Below are positions 3,652 to 45,418 of a stretch of 48,852 nt of DNA, one piece after another. The translations under genes and the position numbers were made by a program. The stretch is from positions 1-48,852 of the IMG/VR virus record IMGVR_UViG_3300010399_000003; one strand, 5' to 3'. Source of the stretch: a virus. How positions within the stretch are numbered: position 1 is the stretch's first letter; every line of letters starts with the position of its first letter. Below the pieces are notes generated by a model. The model worked only from the letters and a program-made list of their open reading frames with translations, did not search any database and was not told the DNA's origin.

Positions 3652-4512
3652 TTGTTACATACAGTGCTCAACCTGACGCGGCCGTTAGTGATGCTCGACG
3701 AAGAAACGACTGGCTTGAATACAAACGAAGCCAGGATCGTCGAGATCGGTTTTCAAATCTGGACCGCGGCTGGTTTGGAGAAGGAATGGCGATCCCTGAT
3801 TAACCCGGAAATTTCCATCCCTGAAGAAGCCTCGAGAACCAACCATATCACCGATGCATCGATGAAATTATGTAATCGATGTGCAAAAGATCGTGAATCG
3901 CATCCATTGCCGGATTGCGAGGAATTCAAACCTGTTCCACGATTTCGGGATATTGCGGCAAGTTTGGCGAAAGGATTTACGAATGTCGATTTCGCCGGCA
4001 AGAATGTGCGATATGATCTTCGTGTGCTGTCGTCAGAGATGGTTCGTGTTGGAGTGCCGTGGAATTACGTCGGTGCCCGCATTATTGATGCTGACCGACT
4101 CGAACAACTCGGTGAGCCCCGAACGTTATCACATCTCTACGAAAAACACACTGGCAAGAAAATGGAAAACGCCCATGAGGCACTTGCTGATGTGCGAGGG
4201 ACTACAGAAATTATCGTGGCGCAAATGCGCAAATACTCTGCGCTGCCTAGATCACTCGATATGTTGCATGAATTGCAGTGGCCAGGCTGGATTGACGAGA
4301 ATGGCAAATTCAAATTCGTCAATGGTGTGGCTACGTGCATGTTTGGGAAGTGGCGTGATCGTCCTATGAAAGCCATCGAACCAAGTTACTGGGATTGGAT
4401 CTGTCGCTCTGACTTCCCACCTGACATCAAAGCACTTGCTGAGCAAGCGAAACTCGGCAAATTTCCGGAGGCGCCAAGTGGCGAGAGTAAAGACGTTTCT
4501 GGTACATCCTGA
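3652..4512 (+). CDS. DnaQ-like (DEDDh) 3'-5' exonuclease, DNA polymerase III epsilon-like
   Basis: Exo I motif VMLDEETTGL near the N-terminus and Exo III motif HEALADVRGT. TTG start preceded by AAAGGA. Confidence 0.8.
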   Translation: MLHTVLNLTRPLVMLDEETTGLNTNEARIVEIGFQIWTAAGLEKEWRSLINPEISIPEEASRTNHITDASMKLCNRCAKDRESHPLPDCEEFKPVPRFRDIAASLAKGFTNVDFAGKNVRYDLRVLSSEMVRVGVPWNYVGARIIDADRLEQLGEPRTLSHLYEKHTGKKMENAHEALADVRGTTEIIVAQMRKYSALPRSLDMLHELQWPGWIDENGKFKFVNGVATCMFGKWRDRPMKAIEPSYWDWICRSDFPPDIKALAEQAKLGKFPEAPSGESKDVSGTS

Positions 4513-4771
4513 GAAAGGTCCACACGATTTGGAAATCGCACGATTCATCACCGAGTGTGAAGAGAAGTTCTACGTCAACGTCGTGACGCAATACCTGCCG
4601 GTGCCGACACCTCGCGTGCTTGTAATCGTGACCAAACTCGACGAGAAAGATCCGACACAACCACAATCGCAGCTTCAACCACAACAACCATCGACGCGCG
4701 CAGAAAGGACACCACATGACCGGCACAATCAAGCGGCTCATTCAGGACAAGCAGTTCGGGTTCATTCGTGA
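4478..4771 (+). CDS. doubtful overlapping ORF in the csp leader region
   Basis: Protein-like stretch EIARFITECEEKFYVNVVTQYLPVPTPRVLVIVTKLDEK. It has only a GTG/TTG start, overlaps both neighbours, and its tail is low-complexity. Confidence 0.2.
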   Translation: MARVKTFLVHPEKGPHDLEIARFITECEEKFYVNVVTQYLPVPTPRVLVIVTKLDEKDPTQPQSQLQPQQPSTRAERTPHDRHNQAAHSGQAVRVHS

Positions 4772-4919
4772 CGAGAAGGGGAAAGAATACTTTTTCCATT
4801 CGTCCGGATTGAAGAATGCACAGTTCGCAGCGCTGCAGGAAGGCCAGGAAGTGACCTTCGAAGATACGGATGGCGTCAAAGGACCGAGGGCGGAAGATAT
4901 CTATGTTGGTCGCGCCTGA
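4716..4919 (+). CDS. cold-shock protein (CspA family, cold-shock domain)
   Basis: 67 aa: MTGTIKRLIQDKQFGFIRDEKGKEYFFHSSGL...FEDTDGVKGPRAEDIYV. RNP1-like KGFGFI and the FFH motif are typical of Csp. Confidence 0.85.
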   Translation: MTGTIKRLIQDKQFGFIRDEKGKEYFFHSSGLKNAQFAALQEGQEVTFEDTDGVKGPRAEDIYVGRA

Positions 4920-11279: not shown

Positions 11280-11620
11280 TTGAGCGGTTTCGCTCGTAAA
11301 TACTTGTGAATAAAGGACTTATAGTCGTCAGAAACCGCTAAATTACTTAAGAATTCTTGACGTTTTCGGACCGTTTCGACGACCCGTAACTTATTGAAAA
11401 CAAAGGACTTAACCCCGTAGGGGACCGAGGTGGCGTCATCAAAATGAGGCGTAGAAAAAGCAAAAGTCCTTGATTACAGAAACGTAATGCCCGCTAAAGC
11501 CTTATTTTACTAGGGTTTGCGACGCAAGAAATATTTTTGACGCAAATTACAGGCGTTTTTTGACGGCCGTAAACCGTTCTAAATAGGCGTGTTACGGTGA
11601 TTTCCAAAACTTAGCGCATT
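11280..11620. promoter_or_regulatory. AT-rich intergenic regulatory region with repeated short motifs; origin or promoter cluster candidate
   Basis: AAAGGACTTA twice direct and once inverted (AAGTCCTT). TTGACG three times. CAGAAAC and CGTAAC repeated. No credible ORF. Confidence 0.4.
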
Positions 11621-12134
11621 TTCGGCCCTATACTTGTTCCAGGCGCTGTCGTGTTAAGCGCCTCGCGGTTGGGGACGGGTGCGCCGTAGTTGCTGGTTAC
11701 CGTCGGGAGACGGAAGCTAGTTAGCTCGAGCTCATGAAGCACCAGAAGGCCAATCGTGATGAAGCCGGATTGGTGTAGGGCCGTCTGGCGGCTGTGTTCA
11801 AGCGCGGGGACCAGGAGCGTTTCCGTAGGCAGATTCGACAAGCCGCTGCCAGCGCGTTCATCCATCTTAAGCCTTGGGGCTGCCGGCCCTCAGAGAGTCT
11901 GTGGCCTATCCCTTCAGGTGGGAGCCTAACGGCTGGCTGTTTAGCTGGGTCAATGTTAATGGGTGTAGCAAACCCGCTCTCGTTACTGTGGTCGTCCTGG
12001 TGGTTTCACCGGGTTCGTTCGCGGTCTAGGAGGAAAAATCGCCCGCCTAAAATCTACCCGAAATAAATGTGTCCTAGAGCCCACAATCTGCGGCTGCGCG
12101 ACGATAGGTAGAGGGACGGCGGTCTAACCTTAGC

Positions 12135-12176
12135 CGACCGGGGCCGGTATCATCCGGCCCCGGTTCACTTTTCCGG
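12135..12176 (+). terminator. terminator-like hairpin
   Basis: CCGGGGCCGG-tatcat-CCGGCCCCGG perfect 10-bp stem followed by TTCACTTTT. Confidence 0.5.
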
Positions 12177-12178
12177 AA

Positions 12179-12236
12179 CCAGAAACCGTGGTGGAGAACC
12201 ACGGTTGCCCGAATGGACGGGCCTGATGAGGTTCCA
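12179..12236 (+). promoter_or_regulatory. conserved intergenic cassette copy A
   Basis: CCAGAAAC, then hairpin CGTGGTGGAGAACCACGG, then GAATGGACGGGCCTGATGAGGTTCCA, then ATG. Confidence 0.55.
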
Positions 12237-12422
12237 ATGCGTAAAGTCACGACGAAGTCCCACCGTAAGTCTGTTTCCCAGAAACAACCGTTCGTCAACA
12301 CCGTAATGTGTCAGTGGTTCGCACTGTGCAACCGCCCCGCGACCGGAACGACGCGTCATCCGGCGCTCGGTAACGTGCCGACCTGCGACCGGTGCCATAA
12401 CTTCGCGACGGAGAAGCGGTAA
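12237..12422 (+). CDS. zinc-ribbon small protein
   Basis: ATG directly after the conserved GGCCTGATGAGGTTCC leader; CQWFALC ... CDRCHN Cys pairs. Confidence 0.5.
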   Translation: MRKVTTKSHRKSVSQKQPFVNTVMCQWFALCNRPATGTTRHPALGNVPTCDRCHNFATEKR

Positions 12423-12604
12423 TGTCAAAAACGAGATTGCTCAAGCTCATCGAACTTTACTTCACAGGCGGTCCGGAAGATTTCAAGAGGGCTGTTGAAA
12501 GCCTCAGTCATCCTGACCAGAACACGGTTGCCATGTGGCTGCACGAGCTCAATAAGTTAGCTGGCGAAGCGGTCGGGGTTCTCGATTGCCGGAGGAAGTC
12601 ATGA
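12422..12604 (+). CDS. hypothetical protein
   Basis: TAATG overlap; GGAG SD. Confidence 0.5.
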   Translation: MSKTRLLKLIELYFTGGPEDFKRAVESLSHPDQNTVAMWLHELNKLAGEAVGVLDCRRKS

Positions 12605-12993
12605 AGAAAAAATCCAGGAAGCAATCAGCTCGTCATCAGGAAGAAGCCGCCGCGCGAAAAGCTGTCAGAGAATACGACGCCCGAATCAAGAGGATTAAGG
12701 CGCTCGTCACGCATTCTATAGACGGAAGTCCGCTGAAAAGATTCCGTCCGACAGGACGATACACGATTGTGACCCCTGATTCGGTTCAAATCGGGTTCTG
12801 GGTTTCTTCGTGGTGCTTGCCGAAAGGAATTCGCGCTGGTCAGGTCTTTCGGGTCATGGCTGTGGAAGGCGCGGTGTCGCTGCAAGAACCTGGGCACCCG
12901 GGATGGATGGAACCTCCTGGGTTCATGCTTCGCCGTCTTCCTCGCAAGAGCTACAAGATTCTCAATCCTTCCGCAACAGCTCGGACACTCTGA
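12601..12993 (+). CDS. hypothetical protein
   Basis: ATGA overlap; basic N-terminus MKKKSRKQSARHQEE. Confidence 0.5.
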   Translation: MKKKSRKQSARHQEEAAARKAVREYDARIKRIKALVTHSIDGSPLKRFRPTGRYTIVTPDSVQIGFWVSSWCLPKGIRAGQVFRVMAVEGAVSLQEPGHPGWMEPPGFMLRRLPRKSYKILNPSATARTL

Positions 12994-13001
12994 GGTAATC
13001 C

Positions 13002-13262
13002 ATGGCTGAACAGAACGATTTCGAGAAGTCCTTCGAGGAAGCAACCCGCGGTCTGTCACGCGACGACCGCGAAGTGGTGCGGTGCCTGTTCGTCGGCGCG
13101 ATTGGTCGACCGTCGGTGTTCTACTCATCGAAAATCTTCGCGGCGGCGTCCGCTATCGCGAAGGATATGGGTTGGTGGCGGACGACTCCGGGTGCGGCGT
13201 CGCAGATGAAGCGGCGTAAGGCTGGAAAGCGTGGGTCGGATTGGGGCGGGAGAGGTATCTAA
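13002..13262 (+). CDS. hypothetical protein
   Basis: 86-aa ORF; ends in a TAATG overlap. Confidence 0.5.
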   Translation: MAEQNDFEKSFEEATRGLSRDDREVVRCLFVGAIGRPSVFYSSKIFAAASAIAKDMGWWRTTPGAASQMKRRKAGKRGSDWGGRGI

Positions 13263-13459
13263 TGGGCAACGGGTTCGTCAATCAATACGGGCACCCACTT
13301 GGTGGGTGCCTGTTCGGCACGATGGTCGCCGGTCGGTCGGCTCACAGTATGCGGTGCGCGTGCGCCAATTGTTCAATGTGGCGCAGCCAGAAGGCCGGTC
13401 AGCACCGAGCGGCGCAGAAACGTCGGATGGAGCGTGCAGCCAAGCGGAGGCAGAAATGA
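13262..13459 (+). CDS. hypothetical small basic protein
   Basis: TAATG overlap with the upstream gene. Preferred over the frame-1 ORF 13231.., whose first half is Arg-rich and looks spurious. Confidence 0.4.
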   Translation: MGNGFVNQYGHPLGGCLFGTMVAGRSAHSMRCACANCSMWRSQKAGQHRAAQKRRMERAAKRRQK

Positions 13460-13473
13460 GAACTCAAGGAGTC

Positions 13474-13656
13474 ATGACTCACGGAACGCGGGTCAGGGTT
13501 CAGAAGTCGAAAGGCAAGCGTGCGTCGTGGCTCGTCATTATGGAAAATGATGAAGAGTCCATCACGCTCGCTGAATTCCCGGTCACCAAAAACGGAACGA
13601 TGGATGCAAAGGAGTGCGCCAACGACTTCCGGTGGATTTGCGGCGCGTGGTCGTAA
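13474..13656 (+). CDS. hypothetical small protein
   Basis: ATG preceded by a perfect AAGGAG at 6-nt spacing. An alternative ATGA-overlap start lies at 13456. Confidence 0.45.
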   Translation: MTHGTRVRVQKSKGKRASWLVIMENDEESITLAEFPVTKNGTMDAKECANDFRWICGAWS

Positions 13657-13734
13657 GGAGCTAGAAACGGCCGACCTGAGGATTTCCAAACTTAGGTCGG
13701 CGTCGCCTGAATTAACAGGCCTGATGAGGTTCCC
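13654..13734 (+). promoter_or_regulatory. conserved intergenic cassette copy B
   Basis: TAAGGAGCTAGAAAC, then hairpin GCCGACCT-gaggatttccaaactt-AGGTCGGC, then GAATTAACAGGCCTGATGAGGTTCCC, then ATG. Confidence 0.6.
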
Positions 13735-14019
13735 ATGTCCAAGAAGAAAGTCGTTCGTCCCGCCGCACTGTCGCTGAAATCCATGCGTGCCATTCGGAAA
13801 GCGGTGTCACAAGCCGAAGACAAGTTGTATGTCGCTATCGGCCTCCTCGAAGACCAGATGGAGATTTTCGACCACGAAGACGCAACCGCAGCCGAGCTGC
13901 GGATGTCCGATGACCTGGAGTCGGCGCGTGATGCCGGCGAAGACCTCGCGGACTATTTCAAGCACCTGAACGATGCATTGGACCGCATCAAGGTGGCGAA
14001 GAAGGATGGTCGGAAGTAA
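13735..14019 (+). CDS. hypothetical acidic protein
   Basis: Preceded by the full conserved cassette (hairpin plus GGCCTGATGAGGTTCC leader). Confidence 0.55.
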   Translation: MSKKKVVRPAALSLKSMRAIRKAVSQAEDKLYVAIGLLEDQMEIFDHEDATAAELRMSDDLESARDAGEDLADYFKHLNDALDRIKVAKKDGRK

Positions 14020-14666
14020 TGGGGATGCGGCGCTCGACTCGCCAGGAGCTCCGCAAGCTGCGCGAAATTTGCCGGGAAGCACTGGACGGGGTCCGGTGCT
14101 TCCTCTGCAAAGAGCTCATTCTCCAATCGGATAACTGCTATGGTCCCGGCGATGGCGAGGGTTCACCGTTCGAAGTCGGCATTACCATCCATCACGCCGA
14201 CGGGAACCATTCGAACAACGACAAGAAGAATCGCAAGTTAGTTCACACGAAGTGTCACAAATCTCATCACCTCAAGGAGCGGCACGCTCAGCGTCGTGCC
14301 GAAAAGCGAATGGCCAAATCAGCCGCAGCGCCGCGTCTCGTGAAAGGGTTCCATGGGTCCGAGCTCGCTCTGAAATTGAAAGCCGCATTGGACAAGGTCA
14401 AGAGCGACGGCGGCGTGAAGTATCCGGCTCGCAAGCAGAAGTCCACGAAGAAGTCCGGCGATCGTCATGCGTGGGCGAAGAAAATCTTCAACGCAACTCC
14501 GCCTGGGTCGCTTCACGATTATCTCGGCGTGCCTCGCGATAAAAAGATTCCTATCGGCAAATTGAAATGGGCAACTCGTCAAACGAAGACCGCGCTCGAC
14601 AAGAAGTTCGCAGCGAAAGCGGCAATGACCCTGCGGTTCGCGATGAAGCGGGCGGCGGCTCGCTGA
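14019..14666 (+). CDS. HNH endonuclease with a basic C-terminal domain
   Basis: ITIHHADGNHSNNDKKNRKLVHTKCHKSHH carries the HNH core (HH-x-DGN ... N ... CH-x2-H). The C-terminus GKLKWATRQTK...AAKAAMTLR is paralogous to the 14756 protein. Confidence 0.7.
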   Translation: MGMRRSTRQELRKLREICREALDGVRCFLCKELILQSDNCYGPGDGEGSPFEVGITIHHADGNHSNNDKKNRKLVHTKCHKSHHLKERHAQRRAEKRMAKSAAAPRLVKGFHGSELALKLKAALDKVKSDGGVKYPARKQKSTKKSGDRHAWAKKIFNATPPGSLHDYLGVPRDKKIPIGKLKWATRQTKTALDKKFAAKAAMTLRFAMKRAAAR

Positions 14667-14755
14667 AATCAGGGACCGGTAGGATTTCCAAACTTAGGCT
14701 CGGCAAGCGTTCGTCCACTCGTCGTCGTAAACCCAATCGTTCAGGTAGGTGTGTC

Positions 14756-14950
14756 ATGGCTAAGCAGAAGCGCGTCACTCGTCGTCGTCGTGTGGTGGCT
14801 GGTCCGTTCGCTCGCGTGCTCGGCGTGAAGTCGAAGGACGAGGTCGCCCTCGGAAAGATGAAGTGGGTGACGCGCCTGCGAGGTTCGAAGAAGAACCTCA
14901 AAATTGCGGCAGCCGCAGCGCAGTATCTCAGGCGTCAGCGGCTTTCGTAG
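14756..14950 (+). CDS. small basic protein paralogous to the C-terminus of the 14019 HNH protein
   Basis: LGVKSKDEVALGKMKWVTRLRGSKKNLKIAAAAAQYLR aligns with LGVPRDKKIPIGKLKWATRQTKTALDKKFAAKAAMTLR. Confidence 0.45.
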   Translation: MAKQKRVTRRRRVVAGPFARVLGVKSKDEVALGKMKWVTRLRGSKKNLKIAAAAAQYLRRQRLS

Positions 14951-15007
14951 TTCATTCCGGGGACCTCGTTCTGCCGGGGACGAGGTCCCCACTCTCAAGG
15001 TGGTTCC

Positions 15008-15220
15008 ATGTCAGTCTGTCCAAAGTGCCGAAATCATTTTCAGCGTGGCAATTGCCCGCATTGTGATGAACGATTTCACCAGCTCAAGACCGACCGGTCG
15101 CTCATCTGCGACCGAGAGGAAGAAGAGTGGTTCTCGATGAAACTCGAGCAAGAAGCGCGTCAGGAACGCGCTCGGCGGTCGGCGGAAACCAGGAAGCGAC
15201 TCAGGGAGCAGAGGTCATGA
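15008..15220 (+). CDS. zinc-finger small protein
   Basis: CPKCRNHF...CPHCDERFH. Confidence 0.5.
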   Translation: MSVCPKCRNHFQRGNCPHCDERFHQLKTDRSLICDREEEEWFSMKLEQEARQERARRSAETRKRLREQRS

Positions 15221-15423
15221 GATATACGATTCAGCCATTCGTCCCGGACCGCCCGGCGATTGTGCCGATGAGCGCGGATACAATCAATGAAGCGTTCAAA
15301 CTCGCGAAAGCGTATCTGGCACTCAATCGAGATGCGGTGTGCGTCATCAAGAACGACGCGAATCCATATGCCCTGACCGTCGCAGTGCTGGCCGGTCGCG
15401 ATGTGCGTGGGGTGGCGGCATGA
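15217..15423 (+). CDS. hypothetical protein
   Basis: ATGA overlap with the upstream stop. Confidence 0.5.
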   Translation: MRYTIQPFVPDRPAIVPMSADTINEAFKLAKAYLALNRDAVCVIKNDANPYALTVAVLAGRDVRGVAA

Positions 15424-15644
15424 AGGAATTGCATTGCAATCAACGGGTTGTTGCGACAGATTCCTACTTCGTCTGTGGTGGTAATCCGGAGAAGAACAGT
15501 GGCGGTGGAGTTATCGGTTCACGCCAGACGTGGGCTGATGCGATCACCCTCAAACTCGAAGCCATCAAGCGTGGTTATCGTCACGTGCAGATTTTCACGT
15601 GGAACGAAATGATGGAGGATAGTCGTGAAATTCACTCGGCCTGA
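15420..15644 (+). CDS. hypothetical protein
   Basis: ATGA overlap with the upstream stop. Confidence 0.45.
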   Translation: MKELHCNQRVVATDSYFVCGGNPEKNSGGGVIGSRQTWADAITLKLEAIKRGYRHVQIFTWNEMMEDSREIHSA

Positions 15645-16212
15645 AATGCTCAAAGCTGGGATGGAGCTCATGGCTCGGTGGTGTGCCCTGAATGGCGTCG
15701 CTCAGCCACGAGTGGAAATCTACGAGGGTCGGGAAACGGATTTCGGAGTCTGCGCTTACTATCGCGACGACGTGATTCACATCTGGCCCGACGCCTGTGC
15801 CCACGTGGGTTATGGTGGTCGGGCCTGGTCTTATCCTGGTTACGTCGTCGACCGAACGCCCTACGGCGTTATCCAGCACGAACTTGGTCATCACGTCGAC
15901 GACGCGGCTGGTTCACGTGGTGGTCGGGTGGCTCATCGATGGCGTGCGGCGACGAAAGAAGAACCGCTGACCGGCTATTGTCCAAACAATAATGAGTGGT
16001 TCGCCGAGATGTTTCGGCTCTTCGTCACAAATCCGGAACTGCTCAGTCTGGTTCGGCCGCGCACTCATCATCTCATGCAGATGGAGTGGCCGCACCCGGT
16101 TGAAACCCGTCGATGGCAGGACGTGCTGAATCACACCGAGCGGCAAGTGAACGCCGCGTGGAACAAGATTTCCAATGTTCAACGAAAGGAAGTGCAAGAT
16201 GGACTCTTCTAA
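15625..16212 (+). CDS. HExxH zinc metallopeptidase-like protein
   Basis: VIQHELGHHVDD matches the zincin HExxH motif; GTG start with GGAGGA upstream. Confidence 0.55.
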   Translation: MKFTRPEMLKAGMELMARWCALNGVAQPRVEIYEGRETDFGVCAYYRDDVIHIWPDACAHVGYGGRAWSYPGYVVDRTPYGVIQHELGHHVDDAAGSRGGRVAHRWRAATKEEPLTGYCPNNNEWFAEMFRLFVTNPELLSLVRPRTHHLMQMEWPHPVETRRWQDVLNHTERQVNAAWNKISNVQRKEVQDGLF

Positions 16213-16408
16213 GTTCATTCATGACTTGATGAAGTTACCAACGCTGCCTGAGGCCGAGCGGAATGCGCGGCTCGGTCCGTGCCCGTGGTGCCCGAATTTC
16301 GACAAGAACGACCCGGCGAATAAGAACAAGTCGCACACGATGTGCATCGTCTGCGAGCATACCCTGAACAAGCAGCTCGCTGAAAAGGAGCACGGCAATG
16401 GCCGCTAG
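16175..16408 (+). CDS. zinc-finger small protein
   Basis: CPWCPNFD...CIVCEH. Confidence 0.45.
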   Translation: MFNERKCKMDSSKFIHDLMKLPTLPEAERNARLGPCPWCPNFDKNDPANKNKSHTMCIVCEHTLNKQLAEKEHGNGR

Positions 16409-17342
16409 CCTCTTGGACAATCTCGAACCGACAATCACGCCAACGGAGCCGATGCTGGCTGCGCCAGAAAGCCAGCTGTGCGTGGAGGACTGGACGGCGT
16501 GGGCAATTGAACGGAAGTACGATGGTCATCGGATGATCATCTATCGGATCGGGAAATCCGAGCTCCACGTCTTTGCGCGACCGACTGGCGACGGTCGCAT
16601 GATTGAACGGACGAGCAAGCTCCCGGCGGAATTGATTCAGGAGCTGAAGAAGTTGCCGCCGTCGGTGACGGATGGCGAACTGCTTGGTGGCGATACGGGC
16701 ACCGACGTCACGCGGAAGGACCTCGCACACAACCTGTCGATGGTGATCTTCGACTTGCTGGAGGTCGATGGCATCGATTGGAAGAACGAACAATATGATT
16801 TCCGCCGGCAAGGATTGGTCGAGATCTTCAATCGGCTCAAGTTGAACCCGTCACGAGTGCAGCTGGCGGAATCACACTTGCTGCGGAGCGAAGGTGACGC
16901 GTTGAAATTTGTTCAGCGTGTCTTCAAAGAAAACGGCGAGGGAGCCATTCTGAAATTCCGGCGCGGTCGCTACCTGCCTGGCAAGCGGAAGAAAGAACTG
17001 TGGGTCAAGATCAAGCGCAAGGAAAGCGCGGCGCTGCCGATTGTCGGTTTCGAACCATCACGTGGCGAGGTGCGGTTTCCTGGTCACCCGTTTGCAATCG
17101 TCAGGTTGATGGATGACGACGGCAACGAAACTACGTGTAAGACGAAGACCGATGAGGAATTGGCGAAATTCGTCGCGCTCTGGCAGAAGAAATTTCCAAC
17201 GGTGCCGCTGAATCAGGTGACGGTGGAGATGGCGAAAAAACACCCAGCGGTCGGACGGTTGTTGCGCATTGAGTTTCCACGTCGCACTCGAACTGGTGGC
17301 TATCAGGGTCCGGTCATCTGGGATCGATGGGAAGACGAGTAG
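16398..17342 (+). CDS. ATP-dependent DNA ligase
   Basis: Motif I KYDGHR (KxDG, adenylated lysine), FDLL, DGELL, EGAILK and the C-terminal LWVKIK motifs. Confidence 0.85.
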   Translation: MAASLLDNLEPTITPTEPMLAAPESQLCVEDWTAWAIERKYDGHRMIIYRIGKSELHVFARPTGDGRMIERTSKLPAELIQELKKLPPSVTDGELLGGDTGTDVTRKDLAHNLSMVIFDLLEVDGIDWKNEQYDFRRQGLVEIFNRLKLNPSRVQLAESHLLRSEGDALKFVQRVFKENGEGAILKFRRGRYLPGKRKKELWVKIKRKESAALPIVGFEPSRGEVRFPGHPFAIVRLMDDDGNETTCKTKTDEELAKFVALWQKKFPTVPLNQVTVEMAKKHPAVGRLLRIEFPRRTRTGGYQGPVIWDRWEDE

Positions 17343-17417
17343 GATCTAGAAACCGTGGCCGACGATTTCCAAAGTTAGGTCGCGGTCGCCGGAATGAACC
17401 GGCCTGAGGAGGGTCCG
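17340..17417 (+). promoter_or_regulatory. conserved intergenic cassette copy C
   Basis: TAGGATCTAGAAAC ... GATTTCCAAAGTTAGGTC ... GGAATGAACCGGCCTGAGGAGGGTCCG then TTG. Confidence 0.6.
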
Positions 17418-17879
17418 TTGGCGAAGGATGATTTCGTGACTCGTGGGTTGAAGTCGATGGCGAAACGCGAATCGGCGAAGAAGAAAGGAGCGACTCGGCG
17501 GCGGCGTGACTGGTCGGCGACTGACGCGATGGTGGCAGCGCGAAAGCCTCTGATCAAATCAGGAACTGTGTTTTCTGAATCGGAGCAGGAGGCGATTCGA
17601 AGTGCGGCGCGACGTGTGTGGGATGAATGTGGGTATGACTGTTTGCTCGCGACGGCCGACGAAGAAGGTAAGCCGGTCGAGCGTGTATCAATCAGTCGGG
17701 ATCAAGTCATCGAGATTGCACTCGATGCGGGACGAGCCGAACACTTCTTGCAGCGGGACCTGAAGAAAGGTTCGTCCGTGGTCACGGCGGAATTCATGAA
17801 GCGGTATCAGGCTGCGAAATATGACGAACTCATCGCAGTCGTGAAGCCGGCATTTCCATTCGAACGATACGGGTTGTAA
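17418..17879 (+). CDS. hypothetical protein
   Basis: TTG start placed immediately after the conserved GGCCTGAGGAGGGTCCG leader, as in four sister genes. The listed ATG at 17394 lies inside the cassette. Confidence 0.5.
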   Translation: MAKDDFVTRGLKSMAKRESAKKKGATRRRRDWSATDAMVAARKPLIKSGTVFSESEQEAIRSAARRVWDECGYDCLLATADEEGKPVERVSISRDQVIEIALDAGRAEHFLQRDLKKGSSVVTAEFMKRYQAAKYDELIAVVKPAFPFERYGL

Positions 17880-17885
17880 AGGAGC

Positions 17886-18236
17886 GTGCTCATGTCCGGA
17901 GAGATGAAGAATGAATTGGTCAAGTTCGTGTGTGGCGTTGAAGATCACGTCCTGCACGTCTCCATCTATCGCGGGAAGAAGGACATCCACACGATGTGCA
18001 AGTGGAAGACCCCGGATGGGAAGACCAAGACCGGGTGCCGGGCATATTTCGAGCTCCACGAGGTGGACGAAGCACAGAAAGCGTTCAAGAAGCTGCTGAA
18101 GGAGGCGGAAGAGCAGGGTTGGAAGGTGCTGGAGAAGACGCAGCGGTCGACCGGCTTCAACTCGATCCCGGCTGCACCGAAACCGGCATCGTCCAGGGTG
18201 AGCCAGCTGGCCACTCCAGCGTCGGGCAAGAAGTAG
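17886..18236 (+). CDS. hypothetical protein
   Basis: 116-aa ORF with AAGGAG SD. Confidence 0.5.
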   Translation: MLMSGEMKNELVKFVCGVEDHVLHVSIYRGKKDIHTMCKWKTPDGKTKTGCRAYFELHEVDEAQKAFKKLLKEAEEQGWKVLEKTQRSTGFNSIPAAPKPASSRVSQLATPASGKK

Positions 18237-18319
18237 GATCTAGAAACGCGGGAGGGCGGACAAATAGGGTCCGCCCTCCGGAGTCGTCGCCGGAATGAAC
18301 CGGCCTGAAGAGGATCCGT
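18234..18319 (+). promoter_or_regulatory. conserved intergenic cassette copy D
   Basis: TAGGATCTAGAAAC, then hairpin GGAGGGCGGAC-aaatagg-GTCCGCCCTCC, then GGAATGAACCGGCCTGAAGAGGATCCGT, then ATG. Confidence 0.6.
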
Positions 18320-18784
18320 ATGTCACGAAAGTTGCCGGAACGTTTTCTCAAGTCTGATGGCGAGTCGTTCTGCTCGGTCTGCGACAAGGTCCGAGCGCTC
18401 TGCCGGATGTGCGATCGGTGTCGCGAGCACTGTGAGTGCCCTGAATCATGCGAAGTCTGCGGTGGTCTGACCGGTCCGTTGGCCAGTGCAGTCGCCGACG
18501 TCCAAAAGTTAGAAGTCTGCGGCTGCGTCGATTGCATCATCTGTGGTGAGAAGACTCATCGGGATTACGCGGATTACGGATACGGCCTGACGGAAGAAGA
18601 GGCGTTCGAGAACTCGGGAACGACTGCCACGGCAGTCTGCGAAAAGTGCGTGGCGAAAGGCAAGACTCCGCCGCCGGCAAGTCAGCGTGGGTTTGGCACG
18701 GTAGAACCGCATCGGTGCCCGGAATGCGGTGGTGCGCTCGGTGATTGGGGTTGCGTGACAGTCGGTTGTAACGGAGGACGATGA
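18320..18784 (+). CDS. Cys-rich multi-CxxC zinc-binding protein
   Basis: At least 12 CxxC pairs (CSVC, CRMC, CDRC, CEVC, CGCVDC, CIIC, CEKC, CPEC). Follows the conserved cassette. Confidence 0.55.
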   Translation: MSRKLPERFLKSDGESFCSVCDKVRALCRMCDRCREHCECPESCEVCGGLTGPLASAVADVQKLEVCGCVDCIICGEKTHRDYADYGYGLTEEEAFENSGTTATAVCEKCVAKGKTPPPASQRGFGTVEPHRCPECGGALGDWGCVTVGCNGGR

Positions 18785-19068
18785 TGGAAATGTTCAAGCT
18801 GCGTATCACGAATGTCGATATGGATGGCTACTGCGGCCGAACACACCACCCGGCGAAAAGCGACGAGGGCCTCGTGGTCGTTCCGTTGGGCATGGACGGG
18901 TGCTGGGCCGGTGAGTCATCCTACAATCCGTTGCTTGACGGTGGTCAAGCGGCGAGCGTCAAGCAGGGTTTGGATCAGGAATGGCATGAAATCTGCTGGA
19001 CCTGTCTGACCGAAGACGGCCGCACGCTCGAGCTCATGAACCATGAAGTGGAGCTCGTCCATGGCTGA
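18781..19068 (+). CDS. hypothetical protein
   Basis: ATGATG overlap with the upstream stop. Confidence 0.5.
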   Translation: MMEMFKLRITNVDMDGYCGRTHHPAKSDEGLVVVPLGMDGCWAGESSYNPLLDGGQAASVKQGLDQEWHEICWTCLTEDGRTLELMNHEVELVHG

Positions 19069-19318
19069 AGAACGTCGCACACCGCAAACAATCGAATTGG
19101 ATTGTCCTCCTGGCGATCCGCGGCCCGGTGATCTCATTGAACAAGTCATTGAGGGCACCGGTCTGCCGCTGCGCGACGCGGTCAGCCGGTTCTTCGGCAA
19201 CTGGACGTGGAATTACGAAGATGTTTCCCACGAGAAGTGGATGGAAATCCGTCCGATCTTAAAGCAGCGCATTACCGCGCTCTACGAGTCTGGCAAAATT
19301 CGATACGGGAGTTGGTGA
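19061..19318 (+). CDS. hypothetical protein
   Basis: ATGGCTGA overlap with the upstream stop. Confidence 0.45.
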   Translation: MAEERRTPQTIELDCPPGDPRPGDLIEQVIEGTGLPLRDAVSRFFGNWTWNYEDVSHEKWMEIRPILKQRITALYESGKIRYGSW

Positions 19319-19521
19319 TGGCGAATCGTTACGAAGTGGTTGTCGGCAACGTCGGAACGGTATATGATGGGTCGAGTCTGGATGCGACGTTGAAAGTGTT
19401 CAAGGAATACCAAGACCAATCGAAGAGCGGCGTCGGTCGTGCAGCCGGCGAGGATGTCACGGTGCTGAAGAATGGCACCGTGCGTTGGGATTACGATGGT
19501 AAAAGTCGGAGGCTTCGCTAA
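19318..19521 (+). CDS. hypothetical protein
   Basis: TGATG overlap. Confidence 0.45.
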   Translation: MANRYEVVVGNVGTVYDGSSLDATLKVFKEYQDQSKSGVGRAAGEDVTVLKNGTVRWDYDGKSRRLR

Positions 19522-19817
19522 TGCCTATCGAACATAACAAGAGCGGAAGCACGACGCTCACCGGCGACTCAATCGATTTCTTCCGGCTGGCTATGCTCAA
19601 GTCGGCGGTCGGCTTGGAGTTGAAAGGGATTCGCGTGACGCGCGGTCCGGTCGTCTGGAAGCGGGTCAAGAACGAATTCAACCTGAAAGCCAAAACCAAA
19701 AAGGAAGTCTATCAGTGGCTCTGCGCCGAGGTCGAACGGTTGAAGGCGTTGCAAGAGCACGTGGTTCACGAAGACGGTCGGGTCAAGCGCGAAGTCGGCG
19801 GGAAGGAGATTCAGTGA
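19521..19817 (+). CDS. hypothetical protein
   Basis: TAATG overlap. Confidence 0.5.
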   Translation: MPIEHNKSGSTTLTGDSIDFFRLAMLKSAVGLELKGIRVTRGPVVWKRVKNEFNLKAKTKKEVYQWLCAEVERLKALQEHVVHEDGRVKREVGGKEIQ

Positions 19818-19876
19818 AATTGAAGAAGCAGTTGGATCGGCTCAGTCGGCCAATCAAGATCTATTGAGCGGTCCGA

Positions 19877-20095
19877 GTGGCCTTCGGTCGGAAGGTCCCA
19901 AACGGATGGCTCCCGGTGTTCAGTGTGGACACGGTGGCTGAGGCGCGTCGGCTGATTACGTTGGCCTGTCCGATGGATGACAGCGGCAACTACTATGCTC
20001 GAGAACTTGCCGAAGAACAGACGCTCGACAACTTGCAGAAGTTCGGCGATAAGTTGGCGCTGGCTTATGCGCATATGAAGAGGATGAATCCATGA
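19877..20095 (+). CDS. hypothetical protein
   Basis: 72-aa ORF. Confidence 0.45.
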   Translation: MAFGRKVPNGWLPVFSVDTVAEARRLITLACPMDDSGNYYARELAEEQTLDNLQKFGDKLALAYAHMKRMNP

Positions 20096-20556
20096 ACATC
20101 ACGCACGCCGACCACGGGTTGGCTCCTGAACACCTCGCGTTTATTCAGCAGTGCATTCTCGATCATACGGAGCAACTGGGTTTGACCGGCTTCCTCCTGA
20201 CCACCGTGACAATGCCGGATTGGTTGCCGACGCTCGACTGTGGGTTGCATGGTCCGCGGATGGGTGATCCGGTGGTTCCGGAAAACGACGTCTTCTACCA
20301 TGTCCGTGGTTCCCGAAAGTGGGCGTCTCGGTTGTGCGACCGTCCGGCCCGACCGAGTCATCAGATGACGATCATCGCGGCGCTGGATGTGTCACTGAAA
20401 ACGGTCAACGTCATCACGGCATTCGGCGGTCCGTTGGCGCCGAAAGAACCCGGCGATCCGACGTTGATGACGATGGATGAAATTCTCGAATCGCGGAAGT
20501 TCTGGTCCGAGCACGCGCTCAGTGGTGCTCGCTTTGGAGATGGAGGACGAGCGTAA
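20092..20556 (+). CDS. hypothetical protein
   Basis: ATGA overlap. Confidence 0.5.
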   Translation: MNITHADHGLAPEHLAFIQQCILDHTEQLGLTGFLLTTVTMPDWLPTLDCGLHGPRMGDPVVPENDVFYHVRGSRKWASRLCDRPARPSHQMTIIAALDVSLKTVNVITAFGGPLAPKEPGDPTLMTMDEILESRKFWSEHALSGARFGDGGRA

Positions 20557-20756
20557 TGGAAAACGTGAAGCGACCCACGGTCAAACTTGTCGGTGCCGAC
20601 GGCAACGTGTTCAACATCATCGCGCTGTGTAAGGTCGCGGCGCGCAAATCGGGATGGACGAAAGAGAAAATCGATGCGCTGGTTCAGGATCTGATGCACA
20701 GTCGCGATTACGACGACGTCTTGGGCAAGGTCATGGAACAATTCGACGTGGAGTAG
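20556..20756 (+). CDS. hypothetical protein
   Basis: TAATG overlap. Confidence 0.5.
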   Translation: MENVKRPTVKLVGADGNVFNIIALCKVAARKSGWTKEKIDALVQDLMHSRDYDDVLGKVMEQFDVE

Positions 20757-20781
20757 ACAGATTTCCAAACTTAGGTCAATC

Positions 20782-21051: not shown

Positions 21052-21264
21052 ATGCTGAATCTGACTATCGGTGCCACTTACATCGTCCGACCAGGTGATC
21101 ACTTCGAGTTAGTGCTGCCGGATGGCACGACGCTGAGTGTCGAGCAAACGCAAGATGACTTTTCCATCATTCATACGAATGACGAAGTCGCGTATCGCAC
21201 GCCGACGAGTCAATTCGCGAAAGAGAACGAAGCAGATCAACCGCGTGTGACGGGTCGGAAGTAG
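21052..21264 (+). CDS. hypothetical protein
   Basis: TAAATG junction with the upstream gene. Confidence 0.45.
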   Translation: MLNLTIGATYIVRPGDHFELVLPDGTTLSVEQTQDDFSIIHTNDEVAYRTPTSQFAKENEADQPRVTGRK

Positions 21265-21327
21265 GAGCTAGAAAGGTGGTCATCGTGACCACCTCGCCCG
21301 AATCAACGGGCCTGAGGAGGTTCCTGC
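21262..21327 (+). promoter_or_regulatory. conserved intergenic cassette copy E
   Basis: TAGGAGCTAGAAA, then hairpin GGTGGTCA-tcg-TGACCACC, then GAATCAACGGGCCTGAGGAGGTTCCTGC, then ATG. Confidence 0.6.
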
Positions 21328-22272: not shown

Positions 22273-22283
22273 GAGCATTTCCA

Positions 22284-22787
22284 ATGTTCAATCAGTGCAC
22301 CTGCGTGATGCTCGATGCTCCGGTCGACGACATCCCATGCGAATTTTGCGCGACGATGATCTGGGCAGCGGAACTCGAAGCGAAGATCAAGGCGCTACCG
22401 ACTCATGACGATCTGGAAGACGCGAAGATGGATCGTTCTGAGATTGAGGACGCGGTTGATGACGTCCTCAAGGACAGTTACGTCAAGGAAGAAGATCTCG
22501 AAACCGAGTTCGAACGATACATCAAGGACATCGACCTCGTTGACCGAGAAGATCTGAACGACTACGTGCTCGACTCGGAACTCGAAGAGAAGATCAGCGA
22601 AGCGCTGAACGATACCGATCTCGTGCGCGATGTGGCGGCTGGCGCGGCGGAAGGCGCGATGCGTAATCTGAATCGCTTCGCGACGAAACAGGAAGTCGTC
22701 GACATCGCGCTCGAAACGCTCAAGACGGCAATCCAAAATATGCCGTTCTGGACACGGCTTCGTTTGCTGTTTGGGCGGTCGGCATGA
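22284..22787 (+). CDS. hypothetical acidic protein
   Basis: Start at MFNQCT preceded by TAGGAGCATTTCCA; rich in Asp and Glu. Confidence 0.5.
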   Translation: MFNQCTCVMLDAPVDDIPCEFCATMIWAAELEAKIKALPTHDDLEDAKMDRSEIEDAVDDVLKDSYVKEEDLETEFERYIKDIDLVDREDLNDYVLDSELEEKISEALNDTDLVRDVAAGAAEGAMRNLNRFATKQEVVDIALETLKTAIQNMPFWTRLRLLFGRSA

Positions 22788-43214: not shown

Positions 43215-45418
43215 CAGTTTAAATCCCCATGAGCAATATCACTGTGTTGATCACCATGTGGCGTATCGGTATGCAACACATCCGTGTGAGCAACGTCGCC
43301 GTGCGCAGTATCAGCATGTGCTGAATCGGAATGTGCTGTATCTGAGTGAACACCGTCTGCATGAGCCGCAATATCAGAATGTGCTGTATCAGAATGTGCT
43401 GTATCGCCGTGACTAACGTCAGCGTGCGCCACGTCAGAATGTGTGTTGACTAAGGCGACATCCGAATGCGCAGTATCCGAATGTGAATCTACGTGTGCCG
43501 AGTCACTATGTGAATCACTGTGCGAATCGGTATGCGAATCACCATGCGCAATGTGACCAGGTGAATCGAAAAATTCTTCACGATCAACGTGCGAATCAGA
43601 GTGAGAATCTTCGTGTGCGATATCAGAGTGAGCTACGTCGGAGTGGGAATCAGAGTGAGCTACGTCGGAGTGCGCCGTATCACCATGCGTATCACTATGT
43701 GCAGTATCAGTATGCGCGCGGTCTGAATGAGCAGCGTCGCCATGAGCAACGTCTGAATGAGCGACGTCACCGTGCGTTCCAGCATCTGCATGTGCAGCAT
43801 CACCATGGGCAACGTCCTGATGTGCATCATCAGTATGCGTATCGGAATGAGCTATGTCTCCGTGTGCAGTATCCTGATGCACGTCAGAATGAGCCACATC
43901 TGTATGACCAACGATCAAACCAAATCCAAGTCGCGTTGATCCATCAAGTTCGGAAAGTCCCTCGATTTCCAATAACCAAAATGCCGTTGAATCAGCAGGG
44001 ACAAGTGTAAATTCGGTTCGGAGTGTATTATCTTGTTCCGTCTCAGTGATTGAATTAATGTAGAATGAACGCGTGATACCAGTCACGTAATCCGTCAGAC
44101 CAATACGATCACTGATGTCACGATCAAGGCTTCTTGCTAATTCTAATGCATCGCTATTCAAGCCAACAAAACGAACGAGACCCGAAACTTGTGTTATCGG
44201 AAAGGCCATAGAAAAAACGAAATATTGCGCAGCTTCCAATCCAAATCGTGGATCAGCTTGATACACCATATCAATCTGTTGCACGATTGGACCATACTGT
44301 GCAATACTCGTATCGTCTTTCCACTGCATGACAGTCGCACCATAATCATACAATGGTTTCCCGCGTTGTTGTAGTTTCGTCAAATAGCCAGTCACACCTC
44401 CGTTGTACGTCACAGAAAATTCTGTCGCGTTTCCAGAAAAACCAATCGTCACCGACACAAAACCTGTCAGATTCGTTCCGCTTCCATCACTCGCCGTATT
44501 TGCTGTGTAATCGGTAGTCGCTGTGATTGGTGCTAAATCAGCAGCGCCAACACGAACGTCTGGATTATCTGGATCTGTCCAAGGCCCAAGAATTGTAATA
44601 GTCTGGCCAGGGATTAGCTCCATTGGTTGTTTCATCGAGAACATGACAACGTAGCTGGAGCCAGGCACCCGAGGATGAACAGTTGATTGAACCTTGTTGA
44701 TCAGACTAGTACGATCTCGATCGGCGACAAACCCAAAATGATCATCATACACATCAGCATTAGTTGCACTGATTGCACGACGGGTTCTGGATTCATACAC
44801 AACAGTTCCGTCACCACGTATCCAGCAACGATCTAAACCACTAATGCATAGACGATAAATTTCATCGCGAAGCACTGTCTGTTCATCTCGTGTACGATCC
44901 AGTGAATACGGAAAAATATCAGCACTCAAATCCATTTCCAATGCGTCAGGCTGGCTGACGATCGGAATTGAATCAATGAGGACCTGGAAAATCTCGTCAC
45001 CTCGTTTGTTGATTTGTACTGGAAGATTTTCTAATCTCGTTCGCTGTGCAACATCCATCCAATCGACAACTTCACACGATACCGTACGAGGACCGTGCCG
45101 ACCAGTGATTGGAGTGATTGAATCTAACACGCCAGTAAATCGGATGATACTGCCGATTCGATAGCGCACACGGATATTCAATTCAAATCCAGATCTCCTA
45201 TTTTCATGATCTGGACTGTAATATCCGATTAATCCAACACTGTTTCGTTCGCTATTGTCGAGTGAAAAGGACAGAGTGCCGATATCGGCTACAAGATCAA
45301 GAATGGAAGAACCAGGGAGACCACGATGCCACGTGATGCCAGGACCACGAAGCACATCGGTAACGGTCGTCCAACCATTACCACGGCCGCTGAATTCCAT
45401 TTCAATGATGCCACTCAT
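43214..45418 (-). CDS. tail protein (Dit-like position after TMP) with a C-terminal His-Xaa-Asp pentad-repeat domain of about 230 aa
   Basis: 734-aa ORF whose start overlaps the TMP stop. The last 230 residues hold about 46 HxD motifs at roughly 5-residue periodicity (TAHSDVAHSDSHSDVAHSD...). Confidence 0.75.
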   Translation of the reverse strand: MSGIIEMEFSGRGNGWTTVTDVLRGPGITWHRGLPGSSILDLVADIGTLSFSLDNSERNSVGLIGYYSPDHENRRSGFELNIRVRYRIGSIIRFTGVLDSITPITGRHGPRTVSCEVVDWMDVAQRTRLENLPVQINKRGDEIFQVLIDSIPIVSQPDALEMDLSADIFPYSLDRTRDEQTVLRDEIYRLCISGLDRCWIRGDGTVVYESRTRRAISATNADVYDDHFGFVADRDRTSLINKVQSTVHPRVPGSSYVVMFSMKQPMELIPGQTITILGPWTDPDNPDVRVGAADLAPITATTDYTANTASDGSGTNLTGFVSVTIGFSGNATEFSVTYNGGVTGYLTKLQQRGKPLYDYGATVMQWKDDTSIAQYGPIVQQIDMVYQADPRFGLEAAQYFVFSMAFPITQVSGLVRFVGLNSDALELARSLDRDISDRIGLTDYVTGITRSFYINSITETEQDNTLRTEFTLVPADSTAFWLLEIEGLSELDGSTRLGFGLIVGHTDVAHSDVHQDTAHGDIAHSDTHTDDAHQDVAHGDAAHADAGTHGDVAHSDVAHGDAAHSDRAHTDTAHSDTHGDTAHSDVAHSDSHSDVAHSDIAHEDSHSDSHVDREEFFDSPGHIAHGDSHTDSHSDSHSDSAHVDSHSDTAHSDVALVNTHSDVAHADVSHGDTAHSDTAHSDIAAHADGVHSDTAHSDSAHADTAHGDVAHTDVLHTDTPHGDQHSDIAHGDLN
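43217..43915 (-). repeat. imperfect coding tandem repeat (about 15-nt period) encoding the HxD pentads
   Basis: The DNA shows reiterated gaatgtgctgtatc / gagtgagctacgtcg-type units. Confidence 0.8.

Follow-up and report, generated by a model that had tools for sequence, protein, structure and literature searches.

A strand-specific word in the non-coding spacers of a soil phage gene cluster and its placement in the loops of predicted type II hammerhead ribozymes

The locus

The window analyzed here is a stretch of 48,852 nucleotides (nt) of phage DNA (IMG/VR virus record IMGVR_UViG_3300010399_000003, positions 1 to 48,852), and the subject of this work is an 18-nt motif that recurs on its plus strand in the neighborhood of a small-gene cluster at 12-22 kb. 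The window belongs to a phage genome of ~112.8 kb, of which independent assemblies come from several soil or rhizosphere-type data sets (ena:ERZ27256670:k141_6328653, 112,870 base pairs (bp); logan SRR6185503_100285, 112,759 bp) and of which ~78 kb of the ~113 kb were read. No close cultured relative was found, and a megablast search of the window against GenBank phages gave no match. The genes at 1-35.6 kb are on the plus strand and include those for a thymidylate-synthase-like enzyme, an exonuclease, SNF2 and UvrD helicases and an ATP-dependent ligase; beyond 35.8 kb, tail genes are on the minus strand, and polA and a cluster of thymidine-hypermodification genes are located upstream of the window. 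The window contains no tRNA or tmRNA. Gene starts are automatic calls.

A strand-specific word confined to spacers

The motif, GATTTCCAAA(C/G)TTAGG(TC/CT), is found at 13681, 14683, 17364 and 20760, every copy being on the plus strand; the four near-exact copies proposed in an earlier sequence-only reading of this DNA are thereby confirmed, with coordinates shifted by 0-2 nt. A search with the pattern GATTTCCAAACTTAGGYC, in which up to three mismatches were allowed, yields these four matches compared to 0.03 expected from shuffled controls, and none of the 100 shuffles reaches four, which rules out chance occurrence. Two of the copies, at 13681-13698 (GATTTCCAAACTTAGGTC, no mismatches) and at 17364-17381 (GATTTCCAAAGTTAGGTC, one mismatch, C>G at position 11), fill loop III of two predicted hammerhead ribozymes (13656-13736 and, just past the DNA ligase gene, 17341-17419), their last bases joining the 3' arm of stem III. 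The copy at 14683-14700 (GATTTCCAAACTTAGGCT, one mismatch, ending in GGCT) stands alone, 16 nt past the stop of a gene for an HNH endonuclease (14019-14666, plus strand; PHROG HNH families, E 2e-5 to 3e-3; no Pfam match), which lies between the copies 13681 and 14683; the next ATG, at 14756, is 55 nt downstream and opens a gene for a basic protein of 64 aa (14756-14950). The copy at 20760-20777 (no mismatches), also stand-alone, fills a 25-nt spacer, 3 nt past a stop codon and 4 nt upstream of the ATG of a lipoprotein-like gene. The degenerate copy noticed earlier near 11599 is borne out as well: at 11599-11616 (GATTTCCAAAACTTAGCG, plus strand), it contains a 1-nt insertion (an extra A) after CCAAA and a GCG tail, and lies on the 5' side of a conserved non-coding block. 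The suggestion that the motif is sometimes presented in a hairpin loop holds for the copies at 13681 and 17364; the other three copies are not in hairpins.

All five copies are located within non-coding spacers, which make up ~9.7% of the region 11.2-27.6 kb (p ~9e-6), and the region 12.2-27.6 kb contains only nine spacers of at least 12 nt, four of which harbor the motif. The distances from the upstream stop to the motif are 3, 16, 21 and 24 nt, and those from the motif to the downstream start vary from 4 to 57 nt. The main four copies are identical in 15 of the 16 core positions, their flanks are unrelated and their edges are sharp; CCAAA-N-TTAGG forms an imperfect dyad with C or G as the central base. 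Around the stand-alone copies (11599, 14683 and 20760), the RNA is less structured than shuffled sequences (folding z +1.3 to +2.3, with +2.3 for 14683). No further copies of the 18-mer are present in the portion of the genome that was read, nor is there an antisense partner in it, except for a 10-nt palindromic site at 4526, a partial copy on the minus strand (GATTTCCAAATC, which reads GATTTGGAAATC on the plus strand and is a near-palindrome; 4526-4537) within the spacer located upstream of the gene for a cold-shock-domain protein (4716-4919). The motif is real and is a non-coding, strand-specific element that has been selected.

The 1-nt insertion in copy 11599 and a TT insertion found at 17364 in natural strains (see below) mark the same junction after CCAAA, so that the word looks bipartite: Box 1, GATTTCCAAA, appears to be an extended polar heptamer and Box 2 appears to be TTAGG(TC), with 0-2 extra nt at the junction among the natural variants.

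Five predicted type II hammerheads, two of which carry the word

A repeat search separates two families in this region, namely the 18-mer and a 34-nt block at 12204, 13702, 17385, 18286 and 21293 which corresponds to a cassette recognized in the sequence-only reading. The layout of the block is a stop codon followed by GGA(G/U)C-UA-GAAAC, a variable hairpin, GUC, the hairpin GCCNG-AAUNNA-CN'GGC, CUGANGA, G, GUUCC and a start codon. Read together with its upstream part, the cassette follows the order of a type II hammerhead (GAAA, stem III, the cleavage triplet GUH, stem I, CUGANGA and an open stem II), so that the hairpin GCCGACCT (13670-13677)/AGGTCGGC (13694-13701), which had been noticed around the first motif copy and is real, is stem III of the ribozyme at 13656; in the minimum free energy (MFE) fold, it lengthens to 11 bp. 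The cassette is a family of five type II hammerheads, all on the plus strand, for which cleavage is predicted from the sequence. The two that carry the motif in loop III would be cleaved after GUC 13702-13704 (13656-13736, 54.7 bits) and GUC 17385-17387 (17341-17419, 57.7 bits). The three others, whose loops are short and unrelated to the motif, are located at 12174-12238 (68 bits; predicted cleavage after GUU 12204-12206; the 3' arm of stem II holds the Shine-Dalgarno (SD) sequence of gene 12237), 18235-18320 (51 bits; an 11-bp GC-rich stem III; predicted cleavage after GUC 18286-18288) and 21263-21327 (61.7 bits; GAAAG...CUC, in which the 15.2-16.2 pair covaries).

These scores were obtained with a covariance model trained solely on the nine hammerheads, clustered within 4 kb, of a distant IMG/VR phage (L070, ligase 33% identical), five of which match the Rfam family Hammerhead_II at 20.9-29.6 bits. 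The model gives exactly five full-length matches in the window (51-68 bits, E 1e-14 to 1e-20) and no match in 220 kb of other loci. With the Rfam model RF02276, one window copy (12178-12239) scores 23.9 bits, under the gathering threshold of 37 bits, and the other window hammerheads are not matched; annotation pipelines would therefore miss them. The core CUGA-N-GA is present in all 5 window copies and all 9 L070 copies, with N7 alone varying (U/G/A/C). GAAAC...GUC occurs in three window copies, GAAAC...GUU in one and GAAAG...CUC in one; the A15.1-U16.1 pair is invariant in the 14 copies, and the 15.2-16.2 pair covaries. Across 17 modelled pairs in the 14 copies, 233 of 233 cells pair and 10 of the 17 pairs show compensatory change, in an alignment fitted to the model; this pairing score is reached by none of 500 shuffles, and slid controls pair in 26-51% of cells. 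MFE folds recover the three-way junction. Compared to RF02276, the window ribozymes differ in a non-canonical extra A between stem II and G12 (UA/CA-GAAA in 13 of the 14 copies, AC in one) and in the SD sequence of the downstream gene, GAGG, which sits in the core/stem II strand. In the window, a strong hairpin without a U tract, GGGGACCTCGT...ACGAGGTCCCC, was also observed in the spacer 14951-15007, which ends with GGTGGTTCC-ATG, like the 3' end of the hammerhead cassette.

The 18-mer is not included in the type II hammerhead consensus and is a passenger in loop III of two of the five window copies; with three cassettes lacking the motif and three motif copies lacking the cassette, the two are separable, as had been proposed. 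An alternative to be considered is that the motif is not a functional unit of its own and that its copies are remnants of decayed hammerheads, recent duplications or chance matches. Two copies are indeed located in hammerheads, and visual inspection reveals GGAGCUAGAAAC-like and GUCGCC-like scraps in the flanks of 14683 and 20760. However, alignment of the stand-alone flanks with hammerhead halves is no better than that of shuffles (p 0.29-0.84), the covariance model finds no match at the stand-alone copies at E up to 1, chance is excluded, and the two ribozyme-borne copies of the motif are identical in 17 of 18 positions compared to 77% for the surrounding ribozyme, so we consider this explanation very improbable. 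Because the stand-alone flanks are not hammerhead-like and the RNA around them is unstructured, the word is an independent module with sharp edges. A search of Rfam for other structured RNAs or known families returned nothing at the gathering threshold and, at E up to 10, nothing that overlaps any motif copy. The 16-18-mer is an independent strand-specific recognition sequence and is neither a part of ribozyme catalysis nor a structured RNA.

Published work describes clusters of hammerheads that flank single genes in prophages and suggests that they process mRNA (Perreault et al. 2011, PMC3088659); the array described here resembles these in the ribozyme layout and in the presence of several copies between single genes. 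The roles of bacterial and phage hammerheads are largely open, which lends interest to an array of five ribozymes between single genes, with the ribosome-binding site in stem II and with a second, independently selected word carried in the one loop that is dispensable for catalysis.

A pattern scan for this hammerhead family detected seven more IMG/VR contigs with 22 more ribozymes. In one of these, from an unrelated phage (L108; IMGVR_UViG_3300037070_008166, minus strand), a different word, ATCTGGCACCA, is present in 11 copies on one strand compared to 0.26 expected; hammerhead loop III holds two to four of them, and the remainder are stand-alone copies 7-21 nt past stops, often as the loop of a hairpin with a covarying stem. 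The related word GAGTGGCACCG forms 16 repeats in L076, sometimes abutting ATG, and is also present in L040. The dual placement, in loop III and after stops, thus recurs with a phage-specific word, which suggests a rule rather than an accident. Upstream of the L070 hammerhead array, the contig itself opens (L070:1-320) with GGGCCGCCTG-type repeats in tandem over ~240 nt, after which come GGCCGGGGCG repeats.

The polar heptamer at the core of the word

The heptamer ATTTCCA, the core of the 18-mer, occurs 43 times in the window compared to 8.6 +/- 2.6 expected, with 30 copies on the plus strand and 13 on the minus strand. Over 75 kb (the window plus the adjoining contigs L100 and L062), there are 53 copies on the plus strand and 17 on the minus strand compared to 3.4 and 4.4, respectively, expected from base composition, which makes ATTTCCA the top heptamer of the genome in these 75 kb, with a strand bias of p = 2e-5. 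The next base is A or T in 41 of 43 cases and the previous base is mostly G or C (S-ATTTCCA-W). Shorter ATTTCCA cores had been proposed to precede gene starts, at positions that are in fact 3645, 10502 and 22277 (given originally as 3640, 10491 and 22276); these cores are not specific to starts, and the heptamer occurs on both strands, inside coding DNA, in all three codon phases, and both sense and antisense to genes. Its polarity tracks the genome strand rather than gene direction, such that even in the block of minus-strand tail genes 10 of 11 copies are on the plus strand. Diverged strains retain 15 of 15 comparable copies (p about 0.035). The extension ACTTAGG is found only on those ATTTCCA copies that are within 18-mers; given that ATTTCCA is their core, the 18-mer is a polar word plus a conserved extension. 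Weaker enrichment of the heptamer was detected in L039 and L108 only. The motif is presented in single-stranded or unstructured positions and is built on this DNA-level polar word.

Two genes begin with the same 15 nt, ATTTCCAATGTTCAA, in which the polar word abuts the ATG and is followed by codons for MFN (16168-16182 and 22277-22291), and a gene with a TTG start at 3652 is also immediately preceded by ATTTCCA.

Conservation among strains and relatives

Cluster look-ups retrieved strain variants of the phage with 94-98% nucleotide identity, spanning 7.7-22.6 kb. The expectation that the motif would be conserved in relatives holds at this level of strain identity and fails at ligase identities of 61% or less. 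The copies at 11599, 13681, 14683 and 20760 are unchanged in the strain variants: 13681 is identical in L091 and L095, where a 1-nt deletion lies just 5' of the motif, 14683 in L094 and L095, and 20760 in L096 and L098. In a 96%-identical strain represented by three contigs from three samples (L088, L089 and L090), copy 17364 reads GATTTCCAAAGTTTTAGGTC, with the TT insertion mentioned above, and the other 119 aligned nt of this hammerhead spacer are identical to the window. The motif is absent, with up to four mismatches allowed, from L039 (61% ligase identity), L040 (52%) and 23 IMG/VR loci (44% or less). The exact 18-mer has 37 single matches in IMG/VR, which is the chance level, 16 in JGI metagenomes, of which eight represent one bacterial coding gene (LEQISKLRS) and none is related to the window, and 5 scattered matches in 185,579 genomes, again the chance level; with all exact matches at chance level, the motif is not widespread.

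The strains also delineate a block of ~660 nt on the plus strand (11505-12170) that is ~99.4% identical between strains, compared to a background of ~96%. This block tolerates 1-nt indels and is therefore not coding; it reaches from ~95 nt upstream of copy 11599 as far as the first hammerhead, and is a candidate for a long leader, a non-coding RNA or an origin. The stretch immediately upstream (11310-11500) is hypervariable and contains AAGGACTTA (two direct copies and one inverted) and three copies of TTGACG(C/G).

Gene content differs between strains at 96% identity: a gene for a 66-aa protein (13456-13656) is missing in L091 and L095, the junction coinciding with the 5' edge of a hammerhead, and extra small genes are present after 12599 (L091) and near 19805 (L088 and L096). 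We considered and rejected the possibility that the motif marks the boundaries of gene gain and loss between strains, given that three indels (13449-13654, after 12599 and near 19805) are not at motif copies. The ends of contigs do accumulate near the motif, five (from three samples) within 15 nt of 20760 and one at 14683; 6 of 24 ends are within 30 nt of motif copies (p 3e-5) or, when counted as independent breaks, 4 of ~12 (p 2e-4; four samples). This pile-up fits a conserved island between divergent alleles, and would also fit recombination or nicking.

Possible functions of the word

The motif is probably a phage-specific gene-expression signal. Tentatively, and on the basis of sequence, we propose that it could be a class-specific, promoter-like transcription signal for the small-gene cluster at 12-22 kb. 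Under this scenario, the cluster would be transcribed as long RNAs that the five hammerheads would cut into single-gene messages, and the motif would occupy the few sites that tolerate 18 fixed bases, namely two hammerhead loops III or empty spacers. A phage-encoded or phage-modified RNA polymerase would read the motif, with transcription starting at or near the GG of TTAGG. A transcript begun within loop III would be missing the ribozyme's 5' half and hence would escape cleavage, leaving the SD sequence free. If so, this would be a compact arrangement: RNA that reads through would be cut, and RNA started locally would not.

What speaks for this tentative proposal is the form and placement of the motif, the lack of rival promoter candidates, and copy 11599, which heads the conserved putative leader. 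An AT-rich 14-mer followed by GG is the general shape of single-subunit RNA polymerase promoters, and all copies are co-directional with the genes and non-coding. Copy 11599 heads the 660-nt block, which is much better conserved than coding sequence and leads to the first hammerhead and the first gene, which is where a cluster promoter is expected. The strains at 94-98% identity keep the motif while adjacent genes come and go, and its absence from relatives with ligase identity of 61% or less is compatible with a fast-evolving phage-specific signal. By analogy, L108's own word, ATCTGGCACCA, fits phage-specific signals that would co-evolve with their reader, and the repeat TGGTTACATGT in the tRNA region of the same genome (6 copies compared to 0.17 expected) suggests what class-specific signals would look like. 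The earlier proposal of a promoter for a host sigma factor is not upheld for the sigma-70 type: there is no -35/-10 geometry, the boxes of the motif being 1 nt apart, not 16-18, and no conserved -10 at a fixed distance downstream, and a scan of 10-23 kb yields fewer sigma-70-like sites than shuffled sequences (3 compared to 4.7 expected). The same scan gives 16 terminator-like sites compared to 12.4 expected, none of which is at the motif, and no U tract follows any motif copy. Other known promoter classes were tried and rejected. The reverse complement of the motif contains TAAGTTTG, which fits the Bacteroidetes -7 box TAnnTTTG, but is antisense to every gene; furthermore, there is no -33 TTTG, and the genes carry strong SD sequences. 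By inspection, the spacing also does not fit sigma-54, extracytoplasmic-function (ECF) or MotA-type promoters.

In being a nearly invariant, strand-specific, AT-rich word of 16-18 bp followed by GG, present in one phage and lost in relatives, the motif resembles T7-type promoters (17-23 bp); it differs from these in its confinement to one 9-kb cluster, in the insertions inside the word and in that one copy abuts a start codon. Another likeness is to the PeSL cassettes of T4-type phages, which, as reportedly described by Arbiol et al. in 2010, combine an early promoter and a stem-loop between small early genes and are similarly repeated at variable-gene junctions; here, however, the stem-loop is a predicted catalytic hammerhead, the putative promoter is inside its loop, and there is no sigma-70 consensus.

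Several observations weigh against the promoter proposal. No gene for an RNA polymerase or a sigma factor was found in the ~78 kb of the genome that were read. The motif is missing from the tail and nucleotide-metabolism blocks and hence does not serve as a general promoter for middle or late genes. Internal insertions would not be tolerated by a T7-type promoter, and insertions occur at the same junction in copy 11599 (1 nt) and in copy 17364 of natural strains (TT). Copy 20760 supplies the only SD-like sequence of the downstream gene, AGG, 4 nt before the ATG, so that this gene must be translated from read-through RNA that contains the motif. The 5' half of the motif is found inside and antisense to genes, which points to a reader other than RNA polymerase, and the L108 word, located in hairpin loops with covarying stems, looks like a display at the RNA level.

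A possible, if doubtful, alternative is a site that acts in RNA, with GAUUUCCAAA(N)UUAGG as an accessible single-stranded element of the cluster transcripts that would be bound or cut by a factor, candidates being an endoribonuclease, a 3'-end protector, a translational regulator or the phage cold-shock-domain protein; loop III would then act as a platform that displays the element at the very 3' terminus of the upstream product of cleavage. Such a role is consistent with the location of the core in the loop of both hammerheads, with the less structured RNA at the three stand-alone copies, with the close trailing of upstream stops and the overlap of copy 20760 with a ribosome-binding region, and with the tolerance of insertions at the box junction. 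The L108 word, which is the loop of covarying hairpins past stops as well as part of loop III, points in the same direction, and the phage encodes a cold-shock-domain protein with the near-palindromic partial site upstream of its gene. Conversely, the core heptamer is equally a DNA word, occurring in all codon phases and antisense and with a polarity set by genome strand; copy 11599 does not trail a gene, the distances to downstream starts are variable, and the element has no Rfam family and no structure of its own. Were the RNA site real, it would be a candidate handle for regulating or exploiting ribozyme products. A more far-reaching idea, which we regard as unlikely, is that loop III serves to display a phage-specific single-strand word (here the extended polar heptamer, in L108 ATCTGGCACCA) that is also placed stand-alone after stops. 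In this unlikely case, one sequence-specific single-strand-binding factor would read the word on both nucleic acids, one candidate being the phage cold-shock-domain protein, whose fold contacts ~7 nt. Bound to the exposed plus strand of DNA, such a factor would have genome-wide effects; bound to early-cluster RNA, it would link the processing by ribozymes with message fate and perhaps with the polarity of replication or recombination. If true, the word would be a new kind of cis-element partnering with natural ribozymes.

Two further explanations place the function in DNA. The 18-mers could be extended, high-affinity or specialised sites of an S-ATTTCCA-W system that is read on a single DNA strand and orients replication or recombination, or serves in nicking or priming, for example as Chi-like recombination hot spots at module junctions or as sites of one-strand nicks made by the adjacent HNH endonuclease; we view this as a somewhat unlikely role for the 18-mers, and the heptamer itself may be a Chi-like, nicking or priming word or a site for a single-strand-binding protein. 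Known Chi sequences are G-rich, whereas the heptamer is AT-rich, unlike any of these, and a Chi-like role leaves unexplained why the 18-mer adds a conserved 8-nt extension and is restricted to the spacers of one cluster. The heptamer nevertheless shows what is expected of a Chi-like word, that is, strong over-representation and an orientation bias independent of genes, together with its retention in the diverged strains. There is precedent in the phages LLS and MD8, in which the host Chi ranks as the commonest octamer, nearly all copies being in one orientation, with a density of ~1 per 1.9 kb in LLS (PMC12315714); the heptamer shares with it the rank of most frequent word, the one orientation irrespective of genes and a density of about one per 1-2 kb. 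Chi enrichment has also been reported in phages without recombinases (PMC3784561). The location of all 18-mers on the plus strand, with the HNH gene between two of them, and the clustering of contig ends at the motif are likewise in keeping with nicking or recombination. However, the contig breaks may come from the conserved island between divergent alleles, two assemblies span all sites, and the three junctions of strain gain or loss are not at the motif, one being at a hammerhead edge. T5-like and phiKMV-like phages have localised single-strand nick sites, to which the motif is similar in consisting of a few consensus sites of ~20 nt on one strand; here, only the clustering of contig ends points to nicks. 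In any case, the polar heptamer offers a candidate Chi-like, nicking or priming word that can be tested directly, in a soil phage with probable hypermodified thymidine. The other DNA-level explanation is an asymmetric operator at which a regulator would block or modulate RNA polymerase passing through the cluster, in the manner of the stoperators of mycobacteriophage L5, which are 13-bp asymmetric sites. Like L5 stoperators and the Cluster K start-associated sequences (SAS), the motif is a short asymmetric word in one orientation relative to transcription, in tiny spacers beside stops or starts, and the imperfect dyad with its C/G center and the weaker partial sites elsewhere would suit a regulator as well. 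Nonetheless, there are far fewer copies than in those systems, just four or five sites within 9 kb in a single cluster, and only one is adjacent to a start; no repressor or integrase is seen in the portion of the genome that was read, and the thymidine-hypermodification genes and the genome size suggest a lytic phage; the spacing of the half-sites shifts in natural variants, and the core word keeps its polarity whatever the gene direction. An operator of this type seems improbable.

Neighboring genes and other repeats

The hypermodification set (1899-2960 and, upstream of the window, L059 and L100) comprises a dUMP hydroxymethylase-like thymidylate synthase that is 45% identical to that of Pseudomonas M6/YuA-type phages, HMUDK_hel (a 5-hydroxymethyldeoxyuridine (5-hmdU) DNA kinase domain), ADDT, a radical SAM/SPASM enzyme, glycosyltransferases and a methyltransferase; judging from these genes, the phage DNA probably carries modified T. 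The 10 kb further upstream (L100) encode a vault/SPFH-like protein, a protein with a weak, sub-threshold VWA-domain match and polA, and include a tRNA region; there is no polymerase other than polA and no motif in these 10 kb. The vault-like protein (L100:2389-4974, 861 aa) combines the shoulder and repeat domains of major vault protein with an SPFH/Band 7 domain, which is unusual for a phage. In the tRNA-Val region (L100:970-5090, ~15-19 kb upstream of the window), the repeats TGGTTACATGT and CGACCTGTCG...AATT flank tRNA-like units.

Radical SAM genes are also found inside the tail block (41910-43214 and L062:1-177). In the same region, the minus-strand gene 43214-45418, which encodes a 734-aa protein, contains at 43244-43840 degenerate 15-nt repeats (ATGTGC.GTATCAG-like) that probably encode a 5-residue peptide repeat.

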